A program made the position numbers and the translations under genes. A stretch of DNA of 64,000 bases. It comes from a virus. The stretch is taken from IMG/VR virus record IMGVR_UViG_3300044713_000107, positions 5,930-69,929 of that record. One strand, 5' to 3'. The notes under the pieces are model-generated. The model was not told the origin of the DNA. It was given only the letters and a program-made list of their open reading frames with translations, and ran no database searches. Positions 1 through 62,052 of the stretch are shown in pieces; position 1 is the first letter of the stretch, and every line of letters starts with the position of its first letter.

Positions 1-1228
1 CGCCGATCTCCGTGCGGTAGCGGTTCAGCGTCCAGGAGCCGTTCCGCAGCCGCATGTCGCGGATGCCTTCGATCGTCGTCGAGTCGCGCATGTCGATGTC
101 GCGGAACTTCAGATGCCAGCCGGTGATCCCGAACCCCTGGCGGGCGAGGTGGAAGTTCAGCTTCTCCAGGACCAACTGCGCGATCGGATCGCAGGTGTTG
201 ACGCGGAACGTCTTGTCCTGTGCTTCGCCTGTGCCGCCGCCGAGGTTCCCCGACTCGATCACCCCGGCCTTCGCGGGAGGGCAGCCGTAGCAGGCGAGGA
301 TCTCGTCGCGCTTCTGGTCCAGAAACGACTCAAGGTCAGCGATCCGGCCCTGCGCGAGCTCGACCAGCGTCGCGCCGCCCTTGGTCGCGATCGGCGTCCC
401 CATGTTCCGAGGGCCCACATTGCGGGCCGCGTACTGCTGCAGCCAACGGTTCATCTCCGGCTGCTGCATCCCAGCGGGGAAGTCGACGTGCACCGTCAGA
501 GGCATGCCCTTACGGAAGTACTCCTTGCCGGTCGACCCCGCAAAAAGCCACGCCGTGATCGGCAGCAGAGCGGCCTGCGTCGGAGAGACACCAAACACGC
601 CGGCGCGCGGCGAGTCGAGAGCGATGTGAATGACATCGCGCGGCTCGAACGTGGCACGCTGCCCGAACTCGGTGATCTGCACGTAGCCGGTGATCTGACC
701 GTGCTCGTCCGCCTTCGGGTACATCGTCGGGCAGTCAAGGTTGTAGAGGGCGACAGGAACGTTCCCCACCCAGGAGACCTCGATGAACGCGTCCCCGAAC
801 ACCAGCAGGTCGGTGATGACGTTCCGGGTGAGCTTGCGGATGTCCTCGTCGGGGTTGCAATACGCCATCAGCCGTTCGAGGGCGAGTACTTCCGGCGGCT
901 TGTCAGGCTGCTCGTGGTCGCCTTCGCCGTCGTCCTGGTCCCAGTCGGTGACGAGGCCCCCGGCGGTGATGGTCCGGGCGATCGCGTTCGTCGCCGCCCA
1001 GGCCCACGGGCACGCGAGGTACGCCTCGTGGAGCTCCTGCATCAGCGAGCTGCGGTCCGTCTGGGTCGACGTACCCATGCCTTGGCGATATTCGGTCAAA
1101 CCGCCGGGCGGAATGCCTACCTCGAAGCCTGCCCGCTCGGGGATCTTCGGCGGACCCGCGAGCGCCGCCTCGAAGACCGGCTGCGGGGCATCCCGGCGGA
1201 ACCATGTGCGCGGGCTCCAAGAAGCCAC
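1..1228 (-). CDS. Phage portal protein (HK97-like), truncated by window edge
   Basis: Manual translation from GTG 1228 is open to the window edge (MASWSPRTW...YLACPWAWAATNAIARTI...DLLVFGDAFIEV...EILACYGCPP); directly follows terminase; absent from ORF track. Confidence 0.88.
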   Translation of the reverse strand, partial: MASWSPRTWFRRDAPQPVFEAALAGPPKIPERAGFEVGIPPGGLTEYRQGMGTSTQTDRSSLMQELHEAYLACPWAWAATNAIARTITAGGLVTDWDQDDGEGDHEQPDKPPEVLALERLMAYCNPDEDIRKLTRNVITDLLVFGDAFIEVSWVGNVPVALYNLDCPTMYPKADEHGQITGYVQITEFGQRATFEPRDVIHIALDSPRAGVFGVSPTQAALLPITAWLFAGSTGKEYFRKGMPLTVHVDFPAGMQQPEMNRWLQQYAARNVGPRNMGTPIATKGGATLVELAQGRIADLESFLDQKRDEILACYGCPPAKAGVIESGNLGGGTGEAQDKTFRVNTCDPIAQLVLEKLNFHLARQGFGITGWHLKFRDIDMRDSTTIEGIRDMRLRNGSWTLNRYRTEIG

Positions 1229-1245
1229 GACTACCCCCTCGCTGG

Positions 1246-2832
1246 TCAGATGAAGGGGGACGTCTGCGTAGTGCCGCGCTGCTCGGCGTCGTCGTCAGCC
1301 CACGGGTCGATCTCGGCCTGGCGTGGCCGGTGGGCGATGCCTTGCCCGAACTCGCCTAGCAGAGCAGCGAGCTGCTCGTCGACTGGCGTGTCGAGGATCG
1401 GGAACTGTGGGCCGCCACCGATTGACATGATCAAATAGCGGCCCGCATCGTACCAATGGTCCGGGGCATCGGTGTCGACGTCCTCAGGCCGGTGCGGATC
1501 CCGGGGCAGTTCGCCCATGGTCTTGGTGAACTGCGGGCACGTTCCGTCTAGGACGTGCAGCATCGGGCAGGTCGCCCATCCCAACTCGCGGTGGTGCGCA
1601 CATGCAGGTGCCTCGGCCAGGTAGGTGTGGTACCTGGCCTTCCCGCCGAGGCGGTCGTTGTCCGCCCGGGTGAGGTGCAGGCCCTCGATGGCCATCTGCT
1701 CGGCGGGCGGCAACGACGAGCCCGTCTTTCCCCACATCGCCGGGTCGGCCGCGATCGACACCAGGGCGTGCCCGGTGTTCGCTTCAAGGATCTGCCGAGC
1801 CTGATCACGCTCAGGGGTCTGCACCATCGTCAGCTCGCGGTAGAACCACAGGCGTCCATCGTTGTCGCGGGCCGCAGCCATGTAGACCGACGGGGCGGCC
1901 CAGCCGTAGTCCATTCCGCCGCGGCGCTGCCAGGCGGCGGGGACGTCGAAGAGCGGGACGACGATTCGGTCGCGCTTCCAGTCGGGGAAGGCGGCGTCAG
2001 GCATGGCGGACCAGTCCCCGTCCTTGATTCGGGCGCGCAGGTCGGGGTCGGAGATGCCTTCGAGGGTCTTGTCATAGTCGCCGACGTAGGGGTTGTCGCT
2101 GGCCTTGGCCGGGATGAAGATCCTGCGCCGTCCCGCCTTGTCGCTGACTTCCCTGGAGCCGTAGTCCGTGGCATCGACGTAGTCCGCTTTGACGACGCCG
2201 TGTCCAACGTGGCCGGGGTTTGATGCGGAGCGGGCCCCGAGGCTTGGCACGCCTTCGACGCCGGAGCGGATGCGCGTGTAGAGGAAGTCGACGACTTCGG
2301 GCGGCATCGTGGTGCGCTCGTCGATGATCAGCATGTTGATCTCGGCCGAGGATAGGGCCGCAGCCTCTTCCATGTTCTTCGCGTGCGCGAAGGTGAGGAT
2401 CGACGCCCCAGGGAATCGCAGCTCGTACTTCGACCCGTTCCACTGGCCGCCGAGGGATTTGGCGTACCCGTAGCGTGCGAGGTTCCGGAGCACGGACTGG
2501 TTCAGCTGCGGGAATGTCTTGCGGAACCAGAAGATCTGGATGCCCGGGTATCGGATGCAGGTGCGGATCGCCAGTGCGAGGAGACTGGCGGACTTTCCGC
2601 CGCCGCCTGCGCCGCCATAGAGGACGTCGAGGTCTTCGTCGGGCAGGTTCAGGAACCGCTCCTGGGGACACTCTCCGCACATCGGTGGTAGCTCGTCCTC
2701 GGGCATGCCCGAGAGGCGGGCGAGCACGCGGGGCTTGCACACCGGCTCGAAGCCGATCACCGCCCAGGGGTCGACCGGCGGCTCGTCGAGCTGGTCTGCG
2801 AGGAGATCGAACGCGTCGAGCACCCCCACCAC
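1246..2832 (-). CDS. terL: Terminase large subunit
   Basis: Walker A YGGAGGGGKS, Walker B LIIDE, coupling motif ASNPG, nuclease acidic motifs GMDYG and DHWYDAGRY. Confidence 0.95.
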   Translation of the reverse strand: MVGVLDAFDLLADQLDEPPVDPWAVIGFEPVCKPRVLARLSGMPEDELPPMCGECPQERFLNLPDEDLDVLYGGAGGGGKSASLLALAIRTCIRYPGIQIFWFRKTFPQLNQSVLRNLARYGYAKSLGGQWNGSKYELRFPGASILTFAHAKNMEEAAALSSAEINMLIIDERTTMPPEVVDFLYTRIRSGVEGVPSLGARSASNPGHVGHGVVKADYVDATDYGSREVSDKAGRRRIFIPAKASDNPYVGDYDKTLEGISDPDLRARIKDGDWSAMPDAAFPDWKRDRIVVPLFDVPAAWQRRGGMDYGWAAPSVYMAAARDNDGRLWFYRELTMVQTPERDQARQILEANTGHALVSIAADPAMWGKTGSSLPPAEQMAIEGLHLTRADNDRLGGKARYHTYLAEAPACAHHRELGWATCPMLHVLDGTCPQFTKTMGELPRDPHRPEDVDTDAPDHWYDAGRYLIMSIGGGPQFPILDTPVDEQLAALLGEFGQGIAHRPRQAEIDPWADDDAEQRGTTQTSPFI

Positions 2833-2838
2833 CCCCGG

Positions 2839-3552
2839 TCAGGCCGCCCGGACCGCCCTCAGCTTCTGGGCGATGACCTGCTTGGCCCGCGTCGTCTGCT
2901 CGGGCGTCAGGCCGGCGGCCACCAACCCGGCTTGGATCGCCTCCATGAACACGGCGGCCTTCTTCTCCTCGATCTTCATGAGGCGCTCATCGATGTTGAG
3001 GCGGGCTATCGTGCCGAGGACCGTGTTGCAGCGGTCCATCGCCCGCTCATACAGGGCGACTTCCGCGCGGAGCTGCTCGCCCGCGCCCCCGAGGTAGCGG
3101 ATGTCAGTGAGAGCGTTGACGCGGTCGGCGAGGGCCTCCTGCCACGCCACGACCTGCCCGGCCAGCTGCGAGAGCGCGGTCAGGGGATTCTCGACCGGGC
3201 CGACGTCTAGTTTGGCGAGGGTCTTGGTGACCTTGACTTCAAGGTCAGCCTCGGCCAGCCGACGCTCGGCCGCCGCCAGGCTCTTGGGCGCTTTGCCGCC
3301 GTGGATGCCGCAGACGTTCTGGCCCTTCATCGCCCAGCACACGCAGCGGTGGCCGGCCTTTTCGGGGTCGGTGTTGTTCTTCGAGTAGTTCGCGGTGCAG
3401 CGGCGCTCGTCAGGGATGTTGTGCTTGAGGCAGTAGTCGGTGCCGGGGCGCTTGGGCTGCTCGCAGCGCTGGCCCCGGAGTTCGGGGCGCTGCCGGTACT
3501 TCTCGCCGTAGATGCCTTGGCAGCGCTGGTCGTCGGGCGGGATCTCGGTCAC
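2839..3552 (-). CDS. Probable terminase small subunit with two Cys/His zinc-finger repeats
   Basis: Adjacent to terL; GGAGG RBS before GTG 3552; CGIHGGKAP motif; helical C-terminus. Confidence 0.7.
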   Translation of the reverse strand: MTEIPPDDQRCQGIYGEKYRQRPELRGQRCEQPKRPGTDYCLKHNIPDERRCTANYSKNNTDPEKAGHRCVCWAMKGQNVCGIHGGKAPKSLAAAERRLAEADLEVKVTKTLAKLDVGPVENPLTALSQLAGQVVAWQEALADRVNALTDIRYLGGAGEQLRAEVALYERAMDRCNTVLGTIARLNIDERLMKIEEKKAAVFMEAIQAGLVAAGLTPEQTTRAKQVIAQKLRAVRAA

Positions 3553-3556
3553 TGGA

Positions 3557-3979
3557 TCACCTCCAGTGCGCGGGCCCGGTGTTGGTGGGCTGCGGGGCGC
3601 GTTCGGGGTGTGGTTCGGGTGTGCAGGAGCACTTCGGGTGCGGGGTCTGGTCGCCGTGGGGGCCGGTGCAGGTGGCCTGGTGGATGAGCCCGGCGGCAGC
3701 CTGGTCGATGGCGTGGTCACCGCACGCGAACACCGCCGTCGTGGAGTCCGTGATCGACGGGAGCGGCCCGAACACGATCGGGTTCTCCGGGTCCTGCAGC
3801 AGGATCCGCTCGGCCCGGATCACGTTGATCCGGGCGTGCTCCGCATCCATCTCCGCCTGCGTCAGGCGGCGCTGCCACTGCACCAGCGCGGGAGCATGGC
3901 AGCGCTCACAGACCGGGCCCGCGGTCATCGGCGGGAGAGGCTGTGCGACGACAGGCTCAGGCGTGCCGAGGTTGGGCAT
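3557..3979 (-). CDS. Hypothetical phage protein (CxxC, CxC motifs)
   Basis: RBS GAGGAGG before ATG; tight packing. Confidence 0.65.
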   Translation of the reverse strand: MPNLGTPEPVVAQPLPPMTAGPVCERCHAPALVQWQRRLTQAEMDAEHARINVIRAERILLQDPENPIVFGPLPSITDSTTAVFACGDHAIDQAAAGLIHQATCTGPHGDQTPHPKCSCTPEPHPERAPQPTNTGPAHWR

Positions 3980-3988
3980 CGATCCTCC

Positions 3989-4363
3989 TCAGCCGATCGC
4001 TACGAGCCGGGAGAAGAACACGCCAGTGACCCAGGCCGCGGCGGTGCTGGTGCCGGGATTGGTGCACACCGTGTACGGGCGGGCGCCTTCGCCGAGGAGC
4101 GTGGTGGCGGCGGGGGTGAGGTTCACGGTCGCGATCCCGCTCGTCGGGGTCGTGACCGTGATGGACCCCTGGGGGTTGCTGCCGCTGGACGACACCTGCA
4201 CGAGTGCGGGGCTGGTCGTGTCTTCGACGGTGGGTCGGATGACCAGTTCGACGACGAGACCGGTGAGGTCGACCGGCGGGCCGCCGGGTGTCTGGGTGAG
4301 CGTGAAAGTCGCGGTCCAGACGAATCCGGCGTTGCAGTACGCGTTGACCTGGGTCGGCAGCAT
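3989..4363 (-). CDS. Beta-rich protein resembling BppU N-terminal/virion adaptor domain
   Basis: PVDLTG..ELVIR and TVNLTPAAT pattern; RBS GGAGGTGA. Confidence 0.5.
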   Translation of the reverse strand: MLPTQVNAYCNAGFVWTATFTLTQTPGGPPVDLTGLVVELVIRPTVEDTTSPALVQVSSSGSNPQGSITVTTPTSGIATVNLTPAATTLLGEGARPYTVCTNPGTSTAAAWVTGVFFSRLVAIG

Positions 4364-4398
4364 CGGTCACCTCCCCGGCGCCGGTCGGTTGTGCTGGG

Positions 4399-4695
4399 TC
4401 AGGCTCCGGCGGTGGGGTCGACGGCCTTCGTGGCGTCGGCGGCAGCGTCGTCGGCGACCTGCACGGCGTCGTGCTCGGCCTCCGCGACGACGGGCTTCGC
4501 GGCGGCGTCAGCGTCCTTGGCGACCTGCTCGCCGTCGGCGACGGCCTCGTGGCCGACGCTGCCAGCGGCGGTCTTGAGCTTCGCGGCGATGGCCTCGCCC
4601 TCCGCGACGACGGGGTGCTCGGCTCCGGTGACGAGGCCCTTGACCTTGGCGAGGAACGCGTGGAAGTCGGCTTCGACCTCGGCGAGGAACGACAT
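4399..4695 (-). CDS. Ala/Asp/Glu-rich repeat protein
   Basis: RBS AAGGAG; repeats PVVAEGEAIA / EAVADGEQVA / PVVAEAEHDA. Confidence 0.7.
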   Translation of the reverse strand: MSFLAEVEADFHAFLAKVKGLVTGAEHPVVAEGEAIAAKLKTAAGSVGHEAVADGEQVAKDADAAAKPVVAEAEHDAVQVADDAAADATKAVDPTAGA

Positions 4696-4722
4696 GGTGA
4701 ACTCCTTGAGGGTGAGGGAGGA

Positions 4723-5364
4723 TCAGAAACGTAGGCCGCGCTGGGCGGCGATCCGGCCGAGTTGGCTGGCGATTGCGTCCTGGAGGTTCTTCTCGGACAG
4801 GACGCTGCCGTCGATGTGCACGTTGACCGTGACCGGAGCAGGCGCATCCGGCATGGGTGTGGCGGGCTGCTCATCGTCATGCGGCCAGTGCCAGGATCCC
4901 TCGGCCTGCACGGTCGGGTCGAAGACCTTGGAGAACCGCAGCTTGAACTGCCCTGCTGGCTGGTCGAGGTTGATGCTCAGTCCGACGGTGTTGCCGCCAC
5001 TGACTGCGTCGGTGATGTGCCCCTCGACGGTGCCCGGCCAGCAGCCTTCGTCGGCGAGCCAGACGTGGACCTTGTCGCCGATCGCAGGCCAGCCCTGTTC
5101 GGGCGTCTCGGGGACGGGGTCGATGCCTTGCTGGGCTCGCCACTCGTTGAGCGTGCACGGGCCAGGCCGGAGATCGGAGGCATCCGGTGTGGGTTCGAGA
5201 CGATAGCTGGCCCACGCCCCGGGCGCGTACGCGGCGACTGCCCCGATGTACGTGTTCAGGGTGAGCGCGAGGCGTCCTGCGTCGTTCTCGTGAGCGGCGT
5301 CGCAGTCGATGTGGTGAACGCGTCCGTCGGGCCGCTCGACGTGGGCGATGAACCGCGAGCTCAC
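4723..5364 (-). CDS. Hypothetical phage protein
   Basis: GTGA start/stop overlap with upstream gene. Confidence 0.6.
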   Translation of the reverse strand: MSSRFIAHVERPDGRVHHIDCDAAHENDAGRLALTLNTYIGAVAAYAPGAWASYRLEPTPDASDLRPGPCTLNEWRAQQGIDPVPETPEQGWPAIGDKVHVWLADEGCWPGTVEGHITDAVSGGNTVGLSINLDQPAGQFKLRFSKVFDPTVQAEGSWHWPHDDEQPATPMPDAPAPVTVNVHIDGSVLSEKNLQDAIASQLGRIAAQRGLRF

Positions 5365-5882
5365 GACGCGGCCCCGACCGGCTGCTCGGCCTTGGTCTCG
5401 ATGTCGATGACCTGCCCGTGAGCGTCGTGGTAGACGACGTAGTCGACGCGCGGCACGTGGTACTCGCCGTTCCAGTCGCTGTAGAGGACCGGCTCGGCAC
5501 GCACCGCGTGAGCGGGCGCGCCGGGAATGTGAACGTCGAGGTCCACCGCGAACGAGTGGATCAGCGGCGTGCGTCGCTGAATGCGGGCACCGTCGCCGAG
5601 AAGGTGCAGGCTGGCCCGGAAGTACGGCTCCAGTTGGACGGACACGCGGATCTTCACCGTGCGCCAGTACTCGGCGCGCTGGGTGCGCTTGGCGTTGATC
5701 CGCTGCTGCCCGGACCGCGTAGACGGCTGCACGGGCACGCGGTGCGGGGCGTTCACACGCTCGGCGATCTCACCGTGCCGCGGGGGCAGTGGAGGGATCG
5801 GCAGCGCGCGGGCCTGGTCGCGGGAGACCTTGCGGCGTGCGCGGCGGGGCAGGGACAGGAAGATGTCGAGGTCGGAGGGCAT
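5361..5882 (-). CDS. Hypothetical phage protein
   Basis: RBS GGAG before ATG 5882 (MPSDLDIFL). Confidence 0.6.
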   Translation of the reverse strand: MPSDLDIFLSLPRRARRKVSRDQARALPIPPLPPRHGEIAERVNAPHRVPVQPSTRSGQQRINAKRTQRAEYWRTVKIRVSVQLEPYFRASLHLLGDGARIQRRTPLIHSFAVDLDVHIPGAPAHAVRAEPVLYSDWNGEYHVPRVDYVVYHDAHGQVIDIETKAEQPVGAAS

Positions 5883-5920
5883 CGTTTCTCCACGGGGTGC
5901 TGTTGGGGTGCGTTGTGGTG

Positions 5921-5962
5921 CGTGCGCGCGGCTCGACGCACCCCTGCGGAGCCGCGCGCACG
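5921..5962 (-). terminator. Hairpin, probable terminator after SGNH gene
   Basis: Perfect 14-bp inverted repeat cgtgcgcgcggctc (5921-5934) / gagccgcgcgcacg (5949-5962). Confidence 0.65.
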
Positions 5963-6003
5963 TAGTAGCCCGACGCACCGCCGGGAGCGCCGGGAGACGA
6001 GGG

Positions 6004-6870
6004 TTACGGCTGCGGAACGTAGCCGGGGATCCACTGCGCTGCAGCGGCAAGGAACGCCTTGCTGATCTTCGTGCACGCCGCGTTCCTGGGGTGCATGCCT
6101 TCGAGAGTGTGGCGCGACGGCGGGGACTGCTGGCCGGGCCACGTGTCGTCCGCGTTCCAGCGAGCCATCGTCGTCGCGGTGCAGTCCGCAATGGTGACCC
6201 GCGGGTCGTTCAGCGCGGCAACAGCGTTCTGCACGTCGGTGTTGCACTGCGCGATGTTCGCCTGGTAGCTCGCGTCGACGTTCTGCGCGATCGGAATCAA
6301 CGCAACCACGATGCCGCGCACCACCGGACTGAACGCCAGTACCTGCTGCAGGAACGTCGTGATGTTCGCCTGGAAGTTCGCCAGGTTCGTCGCGTTCCCA
6401 GCGTCGTTGGAGCCGATGTGCAGGGTGACGATGTCCGGCGTGTTCGCCGTCAGGGCTGCGGCGAGGCCGGAGAGGACGTTCGGCATCTCCCAGCCACCGT
6501 GAGCGTTGTAAGACAACGTCATCGGGATGTTCTGTTGATCGAGGTGGTCGACCATCCACCCGGGGTAGCCGACGCCGTCGGACGATGCGAGGCCCGCGGT
6601 GATGGAGTCACCGCAGCACATGATCTTCACGGCCGCTTTCGGCGCGATGTTCAGTGCGGTGCGGATGTCCTTGCGCTGAAACGCTGCGCTCTCGCGCTGT
6701 TCCAGTAGCAGGACCTCAATCTGGTCCAGGACGGTCTGGTGGTTGTACCGGGCGCAGTTGCCGTCGTAGCCGTTGACCTCGCTCTTGGCGTCGATGTACC
6801 CGGCCAGGGTGCTGCCGTTGGCGCCTGCGGTGCCGCTCTCCCAGTTGGTGGGGTACTGGGGGTATGTCAT
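6004..6870 (-). CDS. SGNH/GDSL-family esterase with N-terminal extension
   Basis: GDSITAG, HGG, IGSND and EGMHP blocks. Confidence 0.88.
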   Translation of the reverse strand: MTYPQYPTNWESGTAGANGSTLAGYIDAKSEVNGYDGNCARYNHQTVLDQIEVLLLEQRESAAFQRKDIRTALNIAPKAAVKIMCCGDSITAGLASSDGVGYPGWMVDHLDQQNIPMTLSYNAHGGWEMPNVLSGLAAALTANTPDIVTLHIGSNDAGNATNLANFQANITTFLQQVLAFSPVVRGIVVALIPIAQNVDASYQANIAQCNTDVQNAVAALNDPRVTIADCTATTMARWNADDTWPGQQSPPSRHTLEGMHPRNAACTKISKAFLAAAAQWIPGYVPQP

Positions 6871-7097
6871 CGCTGCGCTCCAGGTTGGGGGTTGATCGGG
6901 TCGGGCAAGAACTCGGCCGGGCGTCGGGACGGGCACGACTTGCCCGTGGCGTGCCACCACTTGGTCTCGCCCAGCCACGCCGCAGCACCACACCGGGAAC
7001 AGCGGCCCGGGATGGGGTGCCACTCGGCGCGTTGCCTGAACGGGGCGTCGAGGGCACGCCAGGTGTCGTCGGGCTTCTCGTCGTCGGGGTGGGTCAC
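6867..7097 (-). CDS. Small Cys-containing hypothetical protein
   Basis: Four-base overlaps at both ends; CSRC motif. Confidence 0.6.
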   Translation of the reverse strand: MTHPDDEKPDDTWRALDAPFRQRAEWHPIPGRCSRCGAAAWLGETKWWHATGKSCPSRRPAEFLPDPINPQPGAQR

Positions 7098-7219
7098 TCG
7101 GCCTCGTCAATGTCTACGGACTGGCAGGTGCAGCGGCCGTCCTCGTCGCTGGCCCGGCACTGTCCGCCCTGGGCGTGCTCGGCGGCGACGTGGCCGCAAG
7201 TGCAGTAGACGCGCACCAT
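7094..7219 (-). CDS. Small putative zinc-finger peptide
   Basis: MVRVYCTCGHVAAEH...C...CTC; overlaps next gene start. Confidence 0.45.
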   Translation of the reverse strand: MVRVYCTCGHVAAEHAQGGQCRASDEDGRCTCQSVDIDEAE

Positions 7220-7357
7220 CCACCGCCCATCAGGAAGTTGGTGCCGCGACTGTCCAGGGGAAGGCAGCCGCGGCACCTGCCCGTCACCCTCGAAACGGGC
7301 GCGAGCACCCTGCAGCCAAGCCAACGGGGGCGGCCAGCTCATGCAGGGAGTAGAAGG

Positions 7358-7576
7358 TTAAGCAGCCATCGGCCGGCGGGTCTTCGCCCGGGTTTCCGCC
7401 TCGACACGGAGAACGTCCAGTGCTCGATAGCGCGGGTGCACGGCCTTCGGGTTGACCGGTGTCAGTTTGCCGCGGCACTTCCACACCCGTATCCGCCGCG
7501 GATCGACGCCAGCCGCTGCGGCGGCCTCGTTCGTCGTCCAGGTGATCTGAGTGAGGTCCCCGTCGAGGATGACCAT
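7358..7576 (-). CDS. MerR/excisionase-like HTH protein
   Basis: RBS GGAGGTGA before ATG 7576; TTNEAAAAAGVDPRRIRVWKCRGKL. Confidence 0.8.
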   Translation of the reverse strand: MVILDGDLTQITWTTNEAAAAAGVDPRRIRVWKCRGKLTPVNPKAVHPRYRALDVLRVEAETRAKTRRPMAA

Positions 7577-7601
7577 GGTCACCTCCGTGCGGGGCATGCG
7601 A

Positions 7602-7630
7602 AAGGCCCCAGCCGGATGGGCTGGGGCCTT
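7602..7630. terminator. Intrinsic terminator-like hairpin
   Basis: Perfect 12-bp stem aaggccccagcc / ggctggggcctt with 5-nt loop. Confidence 0.75.
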
Positions 7631-7679
7631 CGAAGACATAGTGGTGGTGCGAAAACTGTTTCAGACTTCTGATCGTTTT

Positions 7680-8384
7680 TCAAGCCACCTGGTCAAAAGT
7701 GCTCTCGTTGGCCACGACCCGGGAGTACAACTCGTATTCCTTGACCGTCAACAGCACCCCGCACGCCGGGTTGCGGCACTCGACGTACTCGTCGCCGTCG
7801 TCCCGGGCCAGCGACCGGAGATCGCACTTCGGGCACGGCGCGCCCATCTGAACCCGAAGCTGGTCGCGGCGGGTGAACCGGGTTGCGGCCTTGTGCCAGT
7901 AGTGGATCTGCGAACCGGGGTTCGCTGAGTCGCGGTCGTACGGCTCGCCGGCGGCGGGGTGCAGGGCGAGGGCCCACTCCAGGTGGACGAGCAGGAACGT
8001 CACTGCACCTGAAGCGGTCTGCCCTTCGCCACCACGACCGGGACGGTGGTTGAGGTGGCGCTGCTCGCGGATGTCGTCTTCGAGTTCGATCAGGCCGCCG
8101 ACTATGCGGTCGGTCATCAGTCGGGAGGCTTGGCCGGGCCATGCGGGGTGGAGGCCGTGGCGTCCCATGGTGCCGGTGGTCTTCGGGGTGGTGCCGTGGA
8201 TGGCCTCCAACCAGACGGCGGCGAGGAGTTCGGGGAGTTCCTGCAACTGGTGGTAGGCGCGGCCTTGGCAGCCGAGGCAGTGCACGGGGCTGCCGTAGAC
8301 GGGCTGGAGGTCGTGGGGCTGTTCGGTGGCTTCGGCGCGGCGCCAGGCGTCGTTGTGCCGAGAAGGGCAAGGAGTCAGATTCAA
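7680..8384 (-). CDS. Actinophage zinc-ribbon protein, possible late-gene regulator
   Basis: TTG start overlapping HNH stop, with GGAGG; CLGC and CPKC...C...C motifs; position just before late genes. Confidence 0.6.
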   Translation of the reverse strand: MNLTPCPSRHNDAWRRAEATEQPHDLQPVYGSPVHCLGCQGRAYHQLQELPELLAAVWLEAIHGTTPKTTGTMGRHGLHPAWPGQASRLMTDRIVGGLIELEDDIREQRHLNHRPGRGGEGQTASGAVTFLLVHLEWALALHPAAGEPYDRDSANPGSQIHYWHKAATRFTRRDQLRVQMGAPCPKCDLRSLARDDGDEYVECRNPACGVLLTVKEYELYSRVVANESTFDQVA

Positions 8385-9040
8385 GACGCACCTCCAGCAG
8401 GCTGCGCACGACGGATCTTCGCTTCGATATCCCGGCGCGTCCGACACTCGCGGCACTGACGCGTGTGAGGGCGCTTGGGCGGCCGGTACGTGTTGGCCTC
8501 GGTGAACGAATGCCCGTTCAGGCACTGTTCACGGTCCGCCGGAGCCACGTATCCAGGCTTGGCCACCGACTTGTATGGCCGAATGCGCTTCGGGTTCTGC
8601 TTCGGAGTCGCGCTTCGCTCGCGTTGCCGGATCTCAGCGCAGCGGCGGCACTGGCGGGTGTGAGGCCGACCGGGCGGCCTGTAGATGTTGTCCTCAGTGA
8701 GAGCGTGCCCTCGGAGGCAGTGGGTCTTGCGCTTGTTGATTCCAGACCCGCCGAATCCTCGCAGTACGTTCTCGCCGTTGGTTACGGGCTCAAGGTGCGA
8801 CGGATTTACGCAGAGCGTGTTCCGGCACAGGTGATCCAGGGTGAGGCCGTCGGGTATCGGGCCGATGCACATCTCATATGCCACCCGATGGGCTGCGTAG
8901 GGAAACCCTCGCTTGCCACGCATGATCACGAACCGGCCGTAGCCGCTCTTGGTGCCGCCCGTCCACTCCCAACAGCCGAGCTTCGCCCGTTTGTTGACCT
9001 TCTCCCAGAAGCGTTCGTGCAAGTCTCGTTTGGCGGGCAT
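8381..9040 (-). CDS. HNH endonuclease (HNH_3-like) with two C-terminal zinc-finger repeats
   Basis: CWEWTG, AHRVAY, DHLCRN..CVNPSHL...EN motifs. Confidence 0.9.
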   Translation of the reverse strand: MPAKRDLHERFWEKVNKRAKLGCWEWTGGTKSGYGRFVIMRGKRGFPYAAHRVAYEMCIGPIPDGLTLDHLCRNTLCVNPSHLEPVTNGENVLRGFGGSGINKRKTHCLRGHALTEDNIYRPPGRPHTRQCRRCAEIRQRERSATPKQNPKRIRPYKSVAKPGYVAPADREQCLNGHSFTEANTYRPPKRPHTRQCRECRTRRDIEAKIRRAQPAGGAS

Positions 9041-9172
9041 GCGGGACTCCCGTGGCAGGAGGGGACATGGCTACTGTCAGTATGCGCCATCACGGTGTGT
9101 CACATGAACTGAATGGGCCGCGAGTTCGGCGAATCGCGTCGGATTGTCACACCCGTCACGCACAATGCCCCC

Positions 9173-9382
9173 ATGGCGACGGTGTACACAGTGCAGGCCG
9201 ACAGCAAGTCGGAAGCCACCACGGGGCTGGAGCAGATGTGCGTCGCTCTCGGTCTGGTGCCGATGGCGTCTGGGCGGGTCTTCGAGGTTCCGGGGCGCGG
9301 CGGCAGGTGGATGGCGCGTGCGGTGCCGGATCAGCAGCGGCAGCCGGGCCTCACGTGCACCCTGCCGAACGACGCGTCGTAG
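9173..9382 (+). CDS. Small hypothetical protein on opposite strand
   Basis: ATG 9173 (MATVYTVQADS); overlaps the 3' end of the convergent gene. Confidence 0.45.
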   Translation: MATVYTVQADSKSEATTGLEQMCVALGLVPMASGRVFEVPGRGGRWMARAVPDQQRQPGLTCTLPNDAS

Positions 9383-9813
9383 CAGCGCTCAGGCAGCCGG
9401 GTGGACTGATGGGGTTCGTCCCAGTCGAAAGGTGACGGCGCATCCAGTTGCTCCGCGAGGGCGCTGGCGAGATTGCCGAGCGTGGCTTCCATGGGCGTCC
9501 CGCCTTGGAGGAGGCCGCTCATCGTGCGCAGGCTTCCGGCAGCGGACCGCTTGGCCTCGGCGTAGGCCCGGAGTTCATCGTCGTGGGTGTCCGGTTCGGC
9601 CGGGCGCATCAGCTCCGCGCGAAGGTCTTCCAGCGGGCATCCCGCATCGCACCAGGTCTCGTCGCAGATCGGGCAGCAGGCCCCCTGCCAGCCGCCGCTC
9701 TCTGCGTCCCTGGCTGCTCCGAGGAGCAGCTCGCGCTCGTCGTCGGGCAGCCATGTGGCGGCCGTGCGCAAGGTCGCGATCGTGGTGCGCACGGCGGCGG
9801 GTAGCTCGGTCAT
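9331..9813 (-). CDS. Hypothetical phage protein (CCPIC, CRC)
   Basis: ATGA overlap; RBS AGGAG. Confidence 0.6.
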   Translation of the reverse strand: MTELPAAVRTTIATLRTAATWLPDDERELLLGAARDAESGGWQGACCPICDETWCDAGCPLEDLRAELMRPAEPDTHDDELRAYAEAKRSAAGSLRTMSGLLQGGTPMEATLGNLASALAEQLDAPSPFDWDEPHQSTRLPERCYDASFGRVHVRPGCRC

Positions 9814-9974
9814 GGCTGCTCCTGGCGGTGCTCGTTGCACCAGTCGGCGTGTTCCTGGGCGGCTTCGCGGGTGCCCCAGCGGCCGAGGACTTCGCCTTTG
9901 GTCTGCCTGTCGTAGACGAAATAGACCGGGGTGTGGTCAACGATGCGGCTGAAGGCCACGAAGCGGGCGCTCAC
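9810..9974 (-). CDS. Small hypothetical protein (54 aa)
   Basis: Manual translation VSARFVAFSRIVDHTPVYFVYDRQ...; overlaps at both ends. Confidence 0.6.
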   Translation of the reverse strand: MSARFVAFSRIVDHTPVYFVYDRQTKGEVLGRWGTREAAQEHADWCNEHRQEQP

Positions 9975-10579
9975 CTCGCCGCCTCCCACTTCCCCGTGGC
10001 CGGGTTGTAGCGCTGCCGGGGCGGTCCAGGCGGTGCAGCCGTTGGGTACGGAGCGACGAGCTTCACCGCCTGGTCCACGCCGAAGATGGACTCGATGCCA
10101 GCGAACGTCGGCTTGCCGTCGGCGGGCGGCTCGCTGGTGCCGTACAGCATCATGTTCTCCATGACGCGGTCCGCCTCTTCCCAGACGGCGCGGGTGACGG
10201 GGTCCATGTCGGCGAGCTTGGCCTGGTAGTCGGCCTCGATGTCCGCGAGGAGATCCCCGGTCGTCCGGGTGTCGGCGGCGGGGTCACGGCGCTGCCACTC
10301 CGGATGCTCTGCAACCCACGCGTCGGCGCACGGCTGGCAGGCGGGGACGGCGTAGATGTCACCAGACGACACGCGGCCAGCGAACCCGGTCACGGCCTCG
10401 ATGCCACACCAGGCGCAGTGGTCGCCGTGGCTCCGCTGGCAGTTCTCGTCGGCCAACCAGTAGCCGTGGTGGATGCTCATGCCGCCGTAGGAGCAGTGCT
10501 CGTGGCCTTCAAGGCAGTTCGCGACGGCCGCATCCCAGGCGGACTGGAGGACGGTCTCTTGCTCGCTCATGCGGTCCAT
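9971..10579 (-). CDS. Cys/His-rich hypothetical protein
   Basis: CAWC and CQPC motifs; start approximate. Confidence 0.6.
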   Translation of the reverse strand: MDRMSEQETVLQSAWDAAVANCLEGHEHCSYGGMSIHHGYWLADENCQRSHGDHCAWCGIEAVTGFAGRVSSGDIYAVPACQPCADAWVAEHPEWQRRDPAADTRTTGDLLADIEADYQAKLADMDPVTRAVWEEADRVMENMMLYGTSEPPADGKPTFAGIESIFGVDQAVKLVAPYPTAAPPGPPRQRYNPATGKWEAAR

Positions 10580-10619
10580 GATGCGCCTGCCACGCGGGTT
10601 GCTGCGTCGGGATATGAAG

Positions 10620-10653
10620 AGGCCCCGCTCGACGGGGGACGCGAGCGGGGCCT
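10620..10653 (-). terminator. Terminator hairpin after DUF2079 gene
   Basis: Perfect 12-bp stem aggccccgctcg / cgagcggggcct, followed by CTTC on minus strand. Confidence 0.7.
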
Positions 10654-10700
10654 GCTGGTCCAATTGTGCACGAGCAGAGGGCGACTGGTCGTGGTTCCGT

Positions 10701-12122: not shown

Positions 12123-12189
12123 AATTCCCCCTGATTGCTTTCACGTTCCGTTTAATCAAGGTAGACGGCAGCACCGACGAACGAGCGGG

Positions 12190-12771: not shown

Positions 12772-12779
12772 TGCCCTCT

Positions 12780-15370: not shown

Positions 15371-15409
15371 GGCTGTGCAGTCCTTTCAGGAGGTGAGGGT
15401 GAGCTGGGG

Positions 15410-16822: not shown

Positions 16823-16836
16823 AGCGGGCCTCCCTT

Positions 16837-54074: not shown

Positions 54075-54174
54075 GACGACCACCACCCCGACGCCCGGTC
54101 AGCCACGCGTCGACACCCAGGAGCAGCAGCGCCGCAATCGCGACCGCCCACACACCCCACATCGGCCCAGTCAC
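54067..54174 (-). CDS. 35-aa membrane peptide
   Basis: Manual translation VTGPMWGVWAVAIAALLLLGVDAWLTGRR; overlaps both neighbours. Confidence 0.5.
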   Translation of the reverse strand: MTGPMWGVWAVAIAALLLLGVDAWLTGRRGGGRRG

Positions 54175-54899
54175 GCCGACTCACCGCCCTGGATCGCCGG
54201 GAACTCGCGGCCGATGGCGTCGAGCTCCAGGAGCATCTGCACGTTGTCCGACGCGGCCTGTATCCGGCGCACCGTCACCAAGGCGACACCGACGAGGTAC
54301 TGCACGGCGTGCGCGTGGATCTCCCAGCGCGTGTCGGTCGGCCAGAACAGGTCCTCGTACTGCTTGCGCGGCGCGCCCGTGAGCTTGAGGATGCTCGCGG
54401 ACTTGAGGACCCGCTTCCAGGCGTGCTCGTCCATGCCGAGGCCGTGGTGTGCCCGGCCAATCGCCGCAGCGGCCTCCCACGACAGCGTCGTCGGCAGCGA
54501 CCCGTGGACGCGGTCGCCGCCGGGCAGCTCGTACCGGCCGTGCTTCCTCAGGGCCGGCAGGACGTCGTGGAAGATCCACCGCTGGAACCGTTCGACCTGA
54601 GCCCGGATCTCCTCGTTCTTGATCCGCGCTGCCTGCCGCTGACCGATCACCCGATACAGGCCCGGCTCGGAGATGAAGCGCACTTCCTGCAGGCCACCGG
54701 GGGTGGGAGCTAGTGCCCACCCTTTCTCGTCCTCTGGAATGGATCGGAGCATGTCCTTAGCCGATCCGAAAGCCAGGCCGCGCGCGATTCCCGGCGCCAG
54801 CGCGCGGAAGGAGTCACCAGCCGCGATGAGCTCGATATCGAACTCGCTGTTCGTAAAGTGCTCGATGCCCGACTGTGGGTGCATGTTGGGAGTCGCCAC
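54171..54899 (-). CDS. Bro-N domain antirepressor
   Basis: TPGGLQ..RFISEPGLY...FQRWIFHDVLPALRKHGRY. Confidence 0.88.
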   Translation of the reverse strand: MATPNMHPQSGIEHFTNSEFDIELIAAGDSFRALAPGIARGLAFGSAKDMLRSIPEDEKGWALAPTPGGLQEVRFISEPGLYRVIGQRQAARIKNEEIRAQVERFQRWIFHDVLPALRKHGRYELPGGDRVHGSLPTTLSWEAAAAIGRAHHGLGMDEHAWKRVLKSASILKLTGAPRKQYEDLFWPTDTRWEIHAHAVQYLVGVALVTVRRIQAASDNVQMLLELDAIGREFPAIQGGESA

Positions 54900-56447: not shown

Positions 56448-57311
56448 CTATCGGTACTCGCGCTCAACCCAGGCGGGGAGCGTGATCTCAGGCAGTCGGG
56501 GGCGGGCGTCGACCATGTAGTCCGACCACTCGCCGGAGGCGGTGCACTCGGCGTAGGCGTAGATCGCCATCTCGGCGAACCGCTTGCCGATGTCCAGGGC
56601 GACCGTGTCGAGCTCGACGATCGTGATCAGGTACGGGGCGGTCTTCTCCTGGAACACGAACCGGAACCACGGGTCGGGGTCGCACAGGCCCAGGGCCTTC
56701 ACGCCGGCCAGGTACCAGGCGGCCTGGATGTGGTAGCCGTACTTCCACACATCCCGCTGGATCGAGTCCAGGTCTGCGGCGGTGGTCGTCTTGTAGTCGA
56801 CGACCTGGTCGGGGCGCAGCCAGTCGGGGCGGCATCGCAGCGTCACACCCGTGCCGTGGTGCAGCCAGTACAGGGACTGCTCGGCGTGGCCGGTGCCCGG
56901 GGCGAACAGCGCGCCGGCGACCGGGTGGTCCCGTACGACGCGGGCCATGGCCTGGAGCTCGACGTACTGGCTCTCCAGGACGGGGACGGCACCGCGGGCG
57001 CGCGCTTCTTCCTGCGCCTCCTCGGCGGCCTTGGACCGCCAGCTGTTGAACTCGCAGACCGCGATCTCCGGGCCGTCGTCCAGGATCAGGGTGTGCGCGG
57101 CGGTGCCGAAGTCGAAGTGCGGCTTCGGCCCCTCCGGGTGGTCCATCGCGTACCGGAACTTCGCCGGGCACGACGGGGCAAGGAGCTTCCGCGCGCCCGA
57201 CGACGACAGCGTTGTGGTGTCGGCGTGGTACTCGGCGAGCGGGATGTCGGAGTACACGCCCGGCTCACGCGACGCCGCGAGAGGTATCGGTGTCTCAGCC
57301 AGCAACGTCAT
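56448..57311 (-). CDS. RecE/exonuclease VIII-like PD-(D/E)XK nuclease
   Basis: YHAD..LSSSG, FDFGTAAH, RCRPDWL, VVDYKTT, YGYHIQAAWY. Confidence 0.9.
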   Translation of the reverse strand: MTLLAETPIPLAASREPGVYSDIPLAEYHADTTTLSSSGARKLLAPSCPAKFRYAMDHPEGPKPHFDFGTAAHTLILDDGPEIAVCEFNSWRSKAAEEAQEEARARGAVPVLESQYVELQAMARVVRDHPVAGALFAPGTGHAEQSLYWLHHGTGVTLRCRPDWLRPDQVVDYKTTTAADLDSIQRDVWKYGYHIQAAWYLAGVKALGLCDPDPWFRFVFQEKTAPYLITIVELDTVALDIGKRFAEMAIYAYAECTASGEWSDYMVDARPRLPEITLPAWVEREYR

Positions 57312-58980: not shown

Positions 58981-59225
58981 GCGGCGACCGGCTCGGGCTC
59001 GGCGTTGTCGTCCTCGTTGAGGATGAGTCCGTCGACGGTGAGGCCGTAGGGACGGCCAAGAGCTCGGAAAGTCGCGACCTTGGGTTCGTTGGTGGCGTCG
59101 GGTCGGGCGAGTCGGGAGATGGTGGCCGGGGAGACGCCGGTTCGGGCGGAGATCATGGTGTCGGTGGTGTCTCCGTGAGCCTTTGCTGCTGCCCGGAGTC
59201 GCTCGACGTTGAGGCGGGTGGTCAT
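58977..59225 (-). CDS. Cro-like XRE HTH protein
   Basis: RBS AGGAGG; ISARTGVSPATISRL; divergent from CI-like gene. Confidence 0.8.
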   Translation of the reverse strand: MTTRLNVERLRAAAKAHGDTTDTMISARTGVSPATISRLARPDATNEPKVATFRALGRPYGLTVDGLILNEDDNAEPEPVAA

Positions 59226-59239
59226 GTTCACCTCCTGTT

Positions 59240-59318
59240 TTACGTCTGCGGAAGAGCTTCCGTTGGCGAAAACAGTAGGCGGATGGCGACGCGTGCGCAA
59301 GCTCTTACGCAGACGTAA
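59240..59318. promoter_or_regulatory. Operator pair of immunity region
   Basis: 20-bp inverted repeat (59240-59259 / 59299-59318, one mismatch); core TTACG-N4-CGTAA. Confidence 0.75.
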
Positions 59319-59479
59319 GAGTAAAGCTATGGCAAACCGCTTGGCGTGAACATGAGCCCAAATGTGGCGTCTGAGTGAAGGTGTGGCTTACCCTCTGACC
59401 ACTGCCCTTTCGTGCATGAAAGAGTTGCCGCAGACGCAACAAAGCCCGCTAGCCTGCCAACATGGGAAGCGATGTCGAC

Positions 59480-59911
59480 ATGACGCCATCAGAGGAGTTC
59501 GCTGCCTGGCTCGAACCCGCCATGCGCCGCGCGGGCTACGACCTCGACCGGCTCAGCGGCGGACGCACAGCCTTCGCCGAAGCAGTCGGCGTCTCAGGAG
59601 CCACCGTCACACGCTGGCTCTCCGGCAAGTCCATGCCAGACCCCGACAAGTTCGAATCGATCGCGACGGCCCTCAAGGTCAACCCGATCGACATGCTGCA
59701 CGGAATTGGCGTTCTTTCAGCCAAACCGGCTGCAACAAGCCGTGAAACAGCAGTACGATCGCGTCCCATCACCCCCTCAGAAGCCGCCGACGCGCTAGGC
59801 ATTGACGACCCATACGACCGTCAGATGTTCACTGCGATGGTCAAACAACTCGCCAAACGCCCCAAGCTCACCGCCGCGCCCGACCAGGGGAGTTCTGCAG
59901 CCGAGGGATAG
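59480..59911 (+). CDS. CI-like XRE repressor
   Basis: AFAEAVGVSGATVTRWLSGKSMPD...IATAL. Confidence 0.9.
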   Translation: MTPSEEFAAWLEPAMRRAGYDLDRLSGGRTAFAEAVGVSGATVTRWLSGKSMPDPDKFESIATALKVNPIDMLHGIGVLSAKPAATSRETAVRSRPITPSEAADALGIDDPYDRQMFTAMVKQLAKRPKLTAAPDQGSSAAEG

Positions 59912-60451: not shown

Positions 60452-60471
60452 CCCGCACCCTCGGGGGGACC

Positions 60472-62052
60472 ATGCTGACCCAGACTCGCCAGAACCTGCA
60501 GCCCGTCGAGCTGATCCCCGCCCTCGGATACATCCGCGTCAGCGCATGGTTCGAAGAGAAGATCAGCGACGAGATCCAGAAGGCCTCCATCGAAGACGGC
60601 GCCCGCCGCCGAGGACGCCGCATCGTCGCCTGGATCACCGACCTCGACGCCACCGGCCGCAACTTCAAACGCAAGATCATGGAAGCGATCGGCGCAGTCG
60701 AAACCGGCGAAGCCGAAGGCGCCCGCGAGATCTGGGTGTGGAAATACTCCCGCTTCGGCCGCAACCGCCACGGCGTCGCCGTCAACCTCGCCCGCGTCGA
60801 ACAAGCCGGCGGCCACCTCATCTCCTCCACCGAGGAAGTCGATGCCACCACCGCCACAGGCCGCTTCACCCGCGGCATGCTGTTCGAACTCGCCGCGTTC
60901 GAGAGTGATCGCATCGGCGAGCAGTGGCGCGAAACCCACGAATACCGGCGCGTCCACGGCCTGCCCGCTACCGGCGGCGAACGCTTCGGCTACCTGTGGC
61001 ACCGCCGCGAGATGGACAACGGCATCCTCACCGTCCCCGAGAACTACGAGCCGAACCCGGACTCGGCAGAAGCCGTCAAACAGATCTACGAGGACTACGC
61101 CCACCACGACGCGTCGTTCCGCGACCTGGCCGACACCCTCAACGACGCCCGGATCCTCAACCCCGGAGCCATCACCGCCGACAGATGGAAGCGGCAGACA
61201 CTGCGCTACTACCTCGACTCCGGCTTCGCCGCAGGCCTGCTCCATGTCCACCGCGGTGACAAGAACTGCCCGGCAAGTCAACGGTGCCCGCACGTCGTGG
61301 AGCACTACGGCTACATCCCAGGCGCGCAACCGCCCATCATCTCGGACGACCTATGGGCGGCATACCGGGAACGCCGAGGCCAGCGCAAGGAGCTCCCGCC
61401 CCGGTCCCGTATCCCCCGCTACCCGTTCTCTGGTCTTGCTAAGTGCGGGCTGTGCGGGGGTGCCGCAGTTGCCGCGAACGGTTCAGGTGGCCGGCGCGGC
61501 TACATGTACCGCTGCTCGGTCAAGTACACCGAGCCCGAGCTCGGCCGGTGCCGTGGGGCGGTTGTGCCGTCGAAGTGGGTTGAGGCTGAGGTGCTGCGGT
61601 GGCTGGGGAAGGCTGCGGTCGAGATCGACCGGAGGCTGCAGGGGACGGTGCTGACGCCGAAGAAGGCCGAGCCGCGCGTTGACTCGCGGAAGCGGGAGCG
61701 GCTGGCCGCCGAGGTGACGAAGATTCAGCAGGGCCTCGACCGGGCGTCGACGGCTTACGCGATGGGTGACATGCCGCGTGACAGCTACCTGCGGGTCCGT
61801 GATGAGCTCACGGCGAAGCGGGAGCAACTCGACTCGCAGCTCGGCGGCTTGCGGGCCGAGGAACGCGAGGAGTCGAAGACTACGTGGGAAATGCGGGGTG
61901 CCGTGGTCCGCAGTCTCCTGGAGGAGTGGGACACGCTTTCGGTGTCCGGCAAGCGGGATTTGCTGTCGAGGGCTGTGACGGAGATCAGGGTGTTTCCGAC
62001 CGGGATGGAGCCCCGTGTGGTGTGCGTTCCCCGGGAAGGCTTTGTGTTTTAG
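60472..62052 (+). CDS. Large serine recombinase (phage integrase)
   Basis: YIRVS catalytic motif, SRFGRN, LAAFESDRI, recombinase domain, zinc ribbon CGLCG...YRC...C, coiled coil. Confidence 0.95.
   Translation: MLTQTRQNLQPVELIPALGYIRVSAWFEEKISDEIQKASIEDGARRRGRRIVAWITDLDATGRNFKRKIMEAIGAVETGEAEGAREIWVWKYSRFGRNRHGVAVNLARVEQAGGHLISSTEEVDATTATGRFTRGMLFELAAFESDRIGEQWRETHEYRRVHGLPATGGERFGYLWHRREMDNGILTVPENYEPNPDSAEAVKQIYEDYAHHDASFRDLADTLNDARILNPGAITADRWKRQTLRYYLDSGFAAGLLHVHRGDKNCPASQRCPHVVEHYGYIPGAQPPIISDDLWAAYRERRGQRKELPPRSRIPRYPFSGLAKCGLCGGAAVAANGSGGRRGYMYRCSVKYTEPELGRCRGAVVPSKWVEAEVLRWLGKAAVEIDRRLQGTVLTPKKAEPRVDSRKRERLAAEVTKIQQGLDRASTAYAMGDMPRDSYLRVRDELTAKREQLDSQLGGLRAEEREESKTTWEMRGAVVRSLLEEWDTLSVSGKRDLLSRAVTEIRVFPTGMEPRVVCVPREGFVF

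Follow-up and report, generated by a model that had tools for sequence, protein, structure and literature searches.

Why should a tailed phage carry, next to its packaging genes, a membrane-anchored DNA pump resembling the TraB proteins with which Streptomyces plasmids spread through mycelium? The question is raised by IMGVR_UViG_3300044713_000107, an 80,846-bp virus record in IMG/VR that comes from a soil metagenome assembly, is classed as linear and is estimated by CheckV to be 82% complete. We analyzed bases 5930 to 69929 of this record (64,000 bp, here called the window; coordinates below are those of the window). At the junction of the early genes with the packaging genes, the window holds a leftward cassette that encodes a 715-aa TraB-like double-stranded DNA (dsDNA) translocase, and two genes upstream of the translocase gene contain dense arrays of a single hexamer. 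An initial annotation had seen in the same DNA an integrated prophage with an actinomycete TraB conjugation operon, or else a conjugative element or plasmid core captured by a phage. We hypothesize, by analogy with plasmid systems and with a probability of roughly 55%, that the pump, loaded at the arrays, moves phage dsDNA through the mycelium independently of virions.

The translocase gene lies at 13223 to 15370 on the minus strand. Its product was predicted to begin with three to four hydrophobic helices at about residues 42 to 115, forming a membrane anchor, and to continue with a motor of the FtsK fold that carries Walker A (GRKGSGKT) and Walker B (IMIVGDE) motifs; a C-terminal winged-helix-like domain (residues 647 to 707) is predicted as three helices and a hairpin. 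The best Foldseek matches of the AlphaFold2 (AF2) model (pLDDT 77) were to the FtsK motor (2iut, 2ius, and 6t8b; E from 6.5e-15 to about 1e-14, probability 1.00), and the coupling protein TcpA of pCW3 was also among the best structural matches. The protein belongs to PHROG 31069, described as FtsK/SpoIIIE-like (E = 3.5e-89), whereas searches of Pfam and NCBIfam gave no match and a phmmer search against PDB sequences returned nothing meaningful. The FtsK-type TraB gene named by the initial annotation is thus present, and by its modeled fold and predicted domains the 715-aa protein is TraB-like in architecture.

Read leftward, the cassette encodes a small protein, a free-standing FtsK gamma domain, another small protein, a membrane protein at the position where relatives have DUF2637, a 470-aa membrane protein, the translocase, a 148-aa protein, and a protein of the Mrr fold. 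The 470-aa protein (15410 to 16822, minus strand) combines an N-terminal transmembrane (TM) segment, a G/S/R-rich linker of ~120 aa, and a conserved C-terminal domain of ~220 aa, and the ribosome-binding site and GTG start of its gene are kept in four elements. The C-terminal domain is conserved in the closest relative of the window (Logan contig L012), in a circular element of Streptomyces sp. NBC_01177, in gp101 of phage Hiyaa, and in the plasmids pFQ12 and pDSM40587, and a gene with this domain always precedes the translocase gene. An ESM Atlas search with the domain retrieved only unnamed actinobacterial clusters, scoring below 0.9. A tRNA-His call by ARAGORN at 16502 to 16576 was rejected as false, as it falls within the TM/linker part of this open reading frame and Rfam does not recognize a tRNA at that spot; searches for att sites might be led astray by it.

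The next gene upstream (16940 to ~17833, minus strand) encodes a membrane protein with about four TM helices, a disordered linker rich in V, P, N, and Q, and a C-terminal three-helix domain resembling a helix-turn-helix (HTH). DUF2637 (PF10935) was matched by 12 of the 21 proteins at this position in relatives (best E = 1.6e-40) and gave no match to the protein of the window, which appears too divergent to be recognized by the profile, although over its C-terminal half it shares 52% identity with L012's DUF2637 protein. AF2 modeled the C-terminal domain at a pLDDT above 90 (the whole model averaging 52), and a fold search with the model returned only generic helical hairpins (Z ≤ 7.3), so the label HTH-like reflects the confident three-helix prediction. 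Farther upstream, the 76-aa gamma-domain protein (18286 to 18516, minus strand) is a clear match to PF09397 (67 bits, E = 9e-20). Of 25 relatives, only 5 have this domain: L029, L030, L032, and L037 carry it as a fusion at the C terminus of the TraB-like protein, and one relative has it free and downstream.

At the other end of the cassette, the gene for the 148-aa protein (12780 to 13226, minus strand) is translationally coupled to the translocase gene and has a counterpart at the same position in L012 (65% identity); the protein matched no family in Pfam, PHROGs, or NCBIfam. The last gene (12190 to 12783, minus strand) encodes a protein of the Mrr_cat restriction-endonuclease fold (PF04471, E = 2e-24) that is 87% identical to the product of the same-position gene in L012. 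The TraA-like and SpdA-like genes of the initial annotation found no support in Pfam, NCBIfam, or PHROGs. NCBIfam matched none of ten tra-block proteins; SpdA, SpdB, and KilB of pIJ101, compared with all six frames of the record, reached a best E of 0.14, and pIJ101 Tra and KorA showed no similarity to any frame. A profile built from the spd-position-equivalent proteins aligned with pIJ101 SpdB at a probability of 0.5%. Between the head of the leftward block and a rightward gene for a 107-aa protein lies a 33-nt inverted repeat containing CCCTAGGG (18941 to 19019), which may be the operator/promoter, and hence the control region, of the tra-like block; a sigma-70 promoter scan of 11.5 to 21.5 kb found nothing. 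A terminator-like hairpin follows the 107-aa gene at 19381 to 19408.

The most distinctive feature of the cassette is its repeats. The hexamer GGTTCS occurs 143 times in the window, where dinucleotide-preserving shuffles predict 86, and 45 of the copies fall between 16189 and 17660, a stretch of ~1.5 kb (2.3% of the window) in which ~2 would be expected. They form two arrays. The proximal one (16189 to 16541; 23 copies) lies in the linker of the 470-aa gene and is read mostly as Gly-Ser (GGT-TCS), and the distal one (17189 to 17660; 22 copies, many of them as the palindrome GGTTCCGAACC) lies in the linker of the DUF2637-position gene and is read as Val-Pro-Asn. The codon choice is unusual in both: GGT makes up 56% of Gly codons in the proximal array versus 10.5% in background genes, and GTT makes up 57% of Val codons in the distal array versus 6.5%, so that these rare codons are used ~5 to 9 times as often as in the background. 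Since the same DNA word is read in different frames of two genes and at a cost in codon usage, the DNA motif is probably primary and the peptide secondary.

Paired arrays are a general property of these cassettes. In more than 20 related elements, two dense clusters of an element-specific hexamer lie at about −2400 to −1800 and −1250 to −750 relative to the start of the pump gene, usually in opposite orientation. SGAACC, the complementary-strand form of GGTTCS, is the hexamer of the window, L012, and L018; three elements have CGCCCC and eleven have CGCTAC or CGCCAC, while CGGACC, CGGGCA, CGTTGC, and CGAAGC occur in one element each and CGGATC in Hiyaa. The hexamer of a proximal cluster has a median of 9 copies in the distal cluster of its own element versus a median of 1 in elements whose motif class is different. 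Motif class is followed more closely by the HTH-like domain at the C terminus of the upstream membrane protein than by the winged helix of the translocase: a separate type of HTH-like domain goes with each of the classes A, B, C1, and C2, and between B and C2 both the domains and the motifs differ only slightly. This tracking may reflect physical linkage, given that the domain is encoded only a few hundred bases from the arrays. The gamma domain was ruled out as a universal reader of the arrays by its presence in only a fifth of the relatives.

What such arrays might do is suggested by the TraB-clt systems of pSVH1 and pIJ101, in which clt consists of direct 8-bp repeats recognized by the cognate TraB (PMC4447253). 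The cassette resembles these systems, with their Spd proteins, in having a membrane-anchored FtsK-type pump with a predicted C-terminal winged helix, short repeats, and accessory membrane proteins encoded in the operon (PMC4447253), so the GGTTCS arrays can be proposed, by analogy, as a candidate clt. Unlike them, it shows no sequence similarity to the pIJ101 proteins and lacks both a PF01580 match and a GntR-type TraR/KorA regulator, and where plasmid traB has a small number of 8-bp repeats at its 3' end, the phage has ~45 copies of a 6-bp core in two upstream arrays within coding linkers. In the plasmid homologues of the translocase gene, a compact array follows the tra-position gene directly on its 3' side, namely seven copies of ACGCAA at 12-bp spacing in pFQ12 (L010, ~6941 to 7070) and eight of CGTAAC/GTTACG in pSQ10 (L011, ~370 to 500). 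These occupy the classical clt position of Streptomyces plasmids and are putative clt loci of pFQ12 and pSQ10. A second point of reference is the FtsK gamma domain with its KOPS motifs: PF09397 is present in the block (and fused to the pump in some relatives), and the motifs are oriented, the two arrays being mostly opposite. Here, however, gamma is free-standing and absent from most relatives, and the motifs form clusters on the element instead of being dispersed over a chromosome arm.

A different explanation is that the pump serves host development or segregation: at the septa of sporulation or vegetative growth it might clear or partition the DNA of the phage, the prophage, or the host and so bring the genome into spores or compartments. 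Phage ftsK, parB, and whiB genes are usually interpreted in this way. In the literature, ftsK-like genes are regarded as ones by which phages may manipulate development (PMC10117723, PMC13587820); a ParB_N protein and the free gamma domain would both fit, and phages of the lytic Hiyaa type also carry the cassette. Against this, the translocase is homologous to plasmid tra-position genes and to the tra locus gene pZL12-71 and is not close to chromosomal FtsK, and element-specific arrays on the phage itself point to the phage genome as the substrate; we therefore regard a developmental or segregational role as rather unlikely.

The cassette is widespread. At least 284 close homologues of the translocase were found, mostly in Streptomyces and many of them on 50- to 100-kb contigs or in chromosomes, although most clade members in public genomes are annotated as hypothetical proteins. 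The closest is that of L012 (82% identity), a 50.7-kb contig in which the order DnaB, cassette, terminase is conserved. In a prophage of the S. canus chromosome (CP108818.1), the cassette lies 4 kb upstream of the terminase, portal, protease, and capsid genes, and the closed circular 51.7-kb "plasmid" of Streptomyces sp. NBC_01177 (NZ_CP108596.1) is a whole phage with the same cassette (translocase 51% identical), carrying terS, terL, portal, capsid, tape measure, and serine recombinase genes. These last two elements have complete tailed-phage gene sets and resemble the window in their translocases (51 to 56% identity), in the cassette upstream of terS/terL, and in paired arrays of an own hexamer, but the hexamers are GGGGCG and GTAGCG, and neither the structural genes nor most of the early ones are related to those of the window. 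Among 25 IMG/VR records with the translocase, 5 are proviruses and 2 are complete with terminal repeats; 3 encode a large serine recombinase and 8 a tyrosine integrase. Wherever the portal gene is detectable (ten other records), it lies 5 to 18 kb downstream of the translocase gene on the same strand. The joint presence of terL, traB, and an integrase is thus not unusual: the search for it that the initial annotation had proposed was positive many times in other genomes.

In a maximum-likelihood tree, 21 phage and provirus translocases form one clade with 100/99 support, the versions of pFQ12, pSQ10, pDSM40587, and pZL12 stand apart, and canonical TraB is very distant. Because many phages and proviruses carry the cassette at a fixed position and their translocases form a phage-only clade, the association with phages, as read from phylogeny and synteny, is old and general and not a one-off capture. 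The 29-kb linear Streptomyces plasmid pDSM40587 (L009) carries two systems: a cassette of the type studied here, with a TraB-like gene and the large upstream gene (960 to 5236), and a system with a canonical FtsK/SpoIIIE TraB, DUF2637, GntR, and kilB (7144 to 14749). As both are present on one plasmid, the two types coexist and are not redundant copies of each other.

Two characterized replicons with related translocases help to interpret the cassette. The plasmid pZL12 (NC_013420) is a tailed-phage genome whose FtsK/TraB-like protein pZL12-71 is 28% identical to the translocase over 63% of the query; genes for a membrane protein, a large protein, the FtsK-like protein, and a small protein stand in the same order, directly upstream of terminase and portal, with a Nudix gene nearby and an integrase gene present. 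BLASTP similarity between the partner proteins is marginal for the 470-aa protein and pZL12-72 (E = 8e-4) and absent for the 148-aa protein and pZL12-70 (E = 0.9). Unlike the phage in the window, pZL12 has ParA/ParB and GntR and lives as a plasmid, while the record lacks ParA and GntR and encodes a large serine integrase; the pZL12 translocase, moreover, falls in a different clade. The parAB partition of pZL12-type phage-plasmids is represented here by a ParB_N protein without ParA. The second comparison is with the Hiyaavirus phages (Hiyaa, Galactica, Spocter, and Keanu), whose translocases, annotated as "FtsK-like DNA translocase," belong at 34% identity and 98 to 99% coverage to the same family, PHROG 31069. 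Hiyaa has a homologous upstream partner (gp101) and two arrays of its own hexamer, CGGATC, in upstream genes, but the rest of its genome is unrelated to the window, its cassette lies in the right arm and not beside terL on the linear map, and no integrase is annotated in the examined parts of the Hiyaa record.

[quoted passage not shown] In the mechanism that we propose, the arrays would be the cis site, similar to clt, at which the membrane-anchored hexameric pump loads onto the circular dsDNA phage genome. The pump would then translocate the genome across hyphal cross-walls and possibly between hyphae, and the phage or prophage would spread through the mycelium without virions, much as TraB and Spd proteins spread plasmids (PMC4447253) and as pZL12 is reported to be transferred.

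Several observations weigh against this proposal. The function assigned to the translocase clade derives from homology and analogy; PF01580 (FtsK_SpoIIIE) does not match the 715-aa protein, none of the proteins in the spd positions could be assigned to a named Spd family, and no GntR-type kil-kor regulator (TraR/KorA) of the translocase was found anywhere in the record (PF00392), although L012 has a GntR+UTRA gene near its cassette. Covariation between the winged helix of the translocase and the motif is partial, the recognition helix being identical in the classes CGCCCC and CGCYAC, and a simple covariation of the two was discarded as not clean, as motif classes B and C share the helix. The core of the repeats is only 6 bp long and sits in coding DNA of low complexity, where slippage may be a partial alternative source of repeats, and pZL12 has no clear hexamer array. 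Finally, the cassette is also carried by lytic phages of the Hiyaa type, so that neither lysogeny nor conjugation need be part of its role.

To the right of the cassette, on the plus strand, are two adjacent genes for Nudix hydrolases (19875 to 20603 and 20516 to 20992; PF00293, E = 7e-16 and 8e-24), as the initial annotation had noted; they are homologous to pZL12-76, which lies near the tra locus of pZL12. They invite a reading in which translocase and Nudix proteins exclude related phages or plasmids by blocking or expelling their DNA, similar to Pif of pSAM2. The position of the Nudix genes beside the block and of their homologue near the pZL12 tra locus, the Mrr-fold nuclease that closes the block, and the occurrence of FtsK/HerA-fold ATPases in defense systems (seen here among lower-ranked fold matches) are compatible with this, but the Nudix genes are on the opposite strand and form a separate unit, the fold is matched best by FtsK and by a coupling protein of conjugation rather than by HerA, and arrays on the element's own DNA fit self-loading rather than exclusion of non-self. 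A role in exclusion is therefore distinctly unlikely in our judgment.

The element that carries the cassette is best explained as a temperate siphovirus of a Streptomycetaceae host, of which the window covers the nonstructural two-thirds, assembled in its unintegrated form. A GC3-based call placed ~113 genes within the window and counted 130 over the record. At its left end, the window holds the packaging genes that the initial annotation had recognized: the portal gene (1 to 1228, minus strand, continuing past the left edge of the window to record position 5595; PF04860, E = 1.4e-22) and, directly upstream of it, terL (1246 to 2832, minus strand), with weak Pfam matches to Terminase_6N and Terminase_3 (E = 6e-4 and 4e-3) and a tblastn match to the Hiyaa terminase (E = 4e-9). 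Directly upstream of terL is a putative terS (2839 to 3552, minus strand) that gave no Pfam match and is 36% identical to the gene before the L012 terminase. On the right, a divergent pair of HTH genes (cro-like, 59010 to 59240, minus strand; cI-like, 59462 to 59911, plus strand; HTH_3, HTH_31, and a weak P22_Cro match) is homologous to the divergent pair in L012, and the CI/Cro-like pair of L012 directly abuts its DnaB module. The pair is followed by a gene for a large serine integrase with Resolvase, Recombinase, and Zn_ribbon_recom domains (60472 to 62052, plus strand), so this part of the initial annotation also held. Virion genes, integrase, and immunity switch together identify a temperate tailed phage with a large serine integrase of the phiC31 type.

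The packaging genes and the integrase had been taken to bracket the conjugation genes within an integrated prophage, but the record continues beyond both. On the left, it runs to a major capsid gene (SU10_MCP) at its extreme end. On the right, the integrase gene is followed by genes for a 394-aa HTH protein, two lysin-type proteins (a Rv2525c-like glycoside hydrolase and an NlpC/P60-like protein), and a 1138-aa tail protein that reaches the right end. No host flank or att junction is present in the record, both ends of which lie in structural genes with the integrase internal. As the ends break the head-tail module, the integrase is internal, and host DNA is absent, the contig represents an unintegrated permutation of a temperate phage genome.

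With a metagenomic contig that has two gene blocks converging at about 36.5 kb, a chimera joining a phage to a conjugative element in assembly has to be considered. Positions 1 to 20000 of the window were, however, recovered by Logan's independent assembly of the source run as a single piece with 0 differences, which argues against such a chimera, and the same linkage occurs in a closed circular replicon, a complete chromosome, pZL12, and 25 IMG/VR records; an artifact of assembly is thus extremely improbable. Apparent "joints" in a read comparison proved to be noise (the sides had only 20 to 25 letters at 85% likeness), and the runs X2 and X3 held short fragments only. A megablast search of positions 1 to 25000 against phage DNA gave no match.

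The stretch from 9 to 36 kb had been described as one operon, yet strand switches at about 19.7, 21.0, 23.9, and 36.5 kb divide it into at least four blocks: a leftward one to ~19.6 kb, the rightward Nudix pair, a leftward one at 21.0 to 23.8 kb, and a rightward one at 23.9 to 36.5 kb. The third of these encodes the ParB_N-domain protein (21589 to 22644, minus strand; PF02195, E = 1e-11), for which no ParA partner was found, the AAA_31 and CbiA profiles matching nothing in the record. The fourth contains genes for an HTH_36 initiator-like protein, a DnaB helicase, a T4-type RNA ligase, and Pnkp (25586 to 30031, plus strand).

This gene content bears on the idea that a phage recently captured the core (rep, par, tra, spd, and pif) of an integrative and conjugative element of the pSAM2 type (actinomycete ICE [AICE]) or of a plasmid. 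The region from 12 to 36 kb does hold TraB-like, Nudix, and ParB_N genes together with the initiator-like protein and DnaB, and pDSM40587 has homologues of DnaB and the cassette. Like pSAM2-type AICEs, the phage has an integrase, an FtsK-type transfer gene, and Nudix genes on one element. AICEs are defined by Int, a Rep (RepSA, RepAM, or Prim-Pol), and Tra (PF01580) (PMC3218068), clustered and with int at one end, whereas here the integrase gene, flanked on each side by phage genes, is separated from the tra block by 45 kb, and the element, of ~80 to 100 kb, has a full virion gene set and lacks an AICE replication protein. RepSA, RepAM, Prim-Pol, and DUF3631 were all absent from the record, the DUF3631 negative being weak since its control matched nothing anywhere. 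GntR and ParA are likewise missing, and the insertion sequences or att-like direct repeats that might flank a captured block were not found. The GC content is an even 65 to 71% throughout the window, without a step; the gene order is the same in L012, and the cassette occupies the same place in unrelated phages and has its own well-supported, phage-only clade. A recent capture is hence very unlikely.

The remaining early genes, most of which (Pfam was run on about 100 open reading frames) had no match, include several with informative relatives. The RNA ligase (PF09511) and Pnkp (HAD_PNKP plus AAA_33) genes at 27978 to 30031 directly follow DnaB, and a second ligase-like gene, of the RLIG1 type (32952 to 33536), lies 3 kb beyond Pnkp; the ligases and Pnkp are probably an RNA-repair set that counters host anticodon nucleases. 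Two HTH_36 initiator-like genes are present, one in the region 25586 to 27890 (plus strand, adjoining DnaB) and one at 46276 to 47765 (minus strand, adjoining the gene for a phage zinc-finger protein), within the convergent blocks that meet at ~36.5 kb, which may point to a pair of replication modules in the phage or to a mosaic built from two early regions. Between terL and the tra-like block are two cargo-like genes, for a GDSL lipase/acylhydrolase (6004 to 6870), which is conserved in L012, and for a DUF2079 membrane protein (10701 to 12038), in whose position L012 has a TROVE/vWA gene. Also encoded are a C5 cytosine methyltransferase (40730 to 41767) 49% identical to pZL12-28, a YspA/SLOG-family protein (45048 to 45554), a Bro-N protein (54171 to 54899), and a DUF3799 exonuclease of the PD-(D/E)XK type (56448 to 57257).

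That phages and phage-plasmids of Streptomyces may carry FtsK/TraB-like loci is not new, either as an idea or as a gene class; what is new here is the phage-specific clade with its fixed position, the composition of the cassette, the free or fused gamma domain, and the paired arrays. More tentatively than for virion-independent movement itself, we suggest as a possible but doubtful elaboration that this clade is a dedicated apparatus for virion-free spread whose clt consists of paired, opposite arrays overprinted on protein linkers and read, possibly, by the DUF2637-position HTH-like domain, the TraB winged helix, or the gamma domain, and that it is missed by surveys that use PF01580. The clade is in fact invisible to searches based on that profile, the marker of the AICE survey (PMC3218068). 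Whether such phages spread without virions can be tested, as cultured carriers exist in phage Hiyaa, the NBC_01177 circular element, and the S. canus prophage, and the arrays are separable from the proteins, in that synonymous recoding can remove the hexamers and leave the proteins intact. If the pump does move phage genomes between compartments or hyphae, many temperate Streptomyces phages would have a second, virion-free route that bypasses receptor-based resistance, and the boundary between prophage and conjugative element would be blurred in the main antibiotic-producing bacteria.

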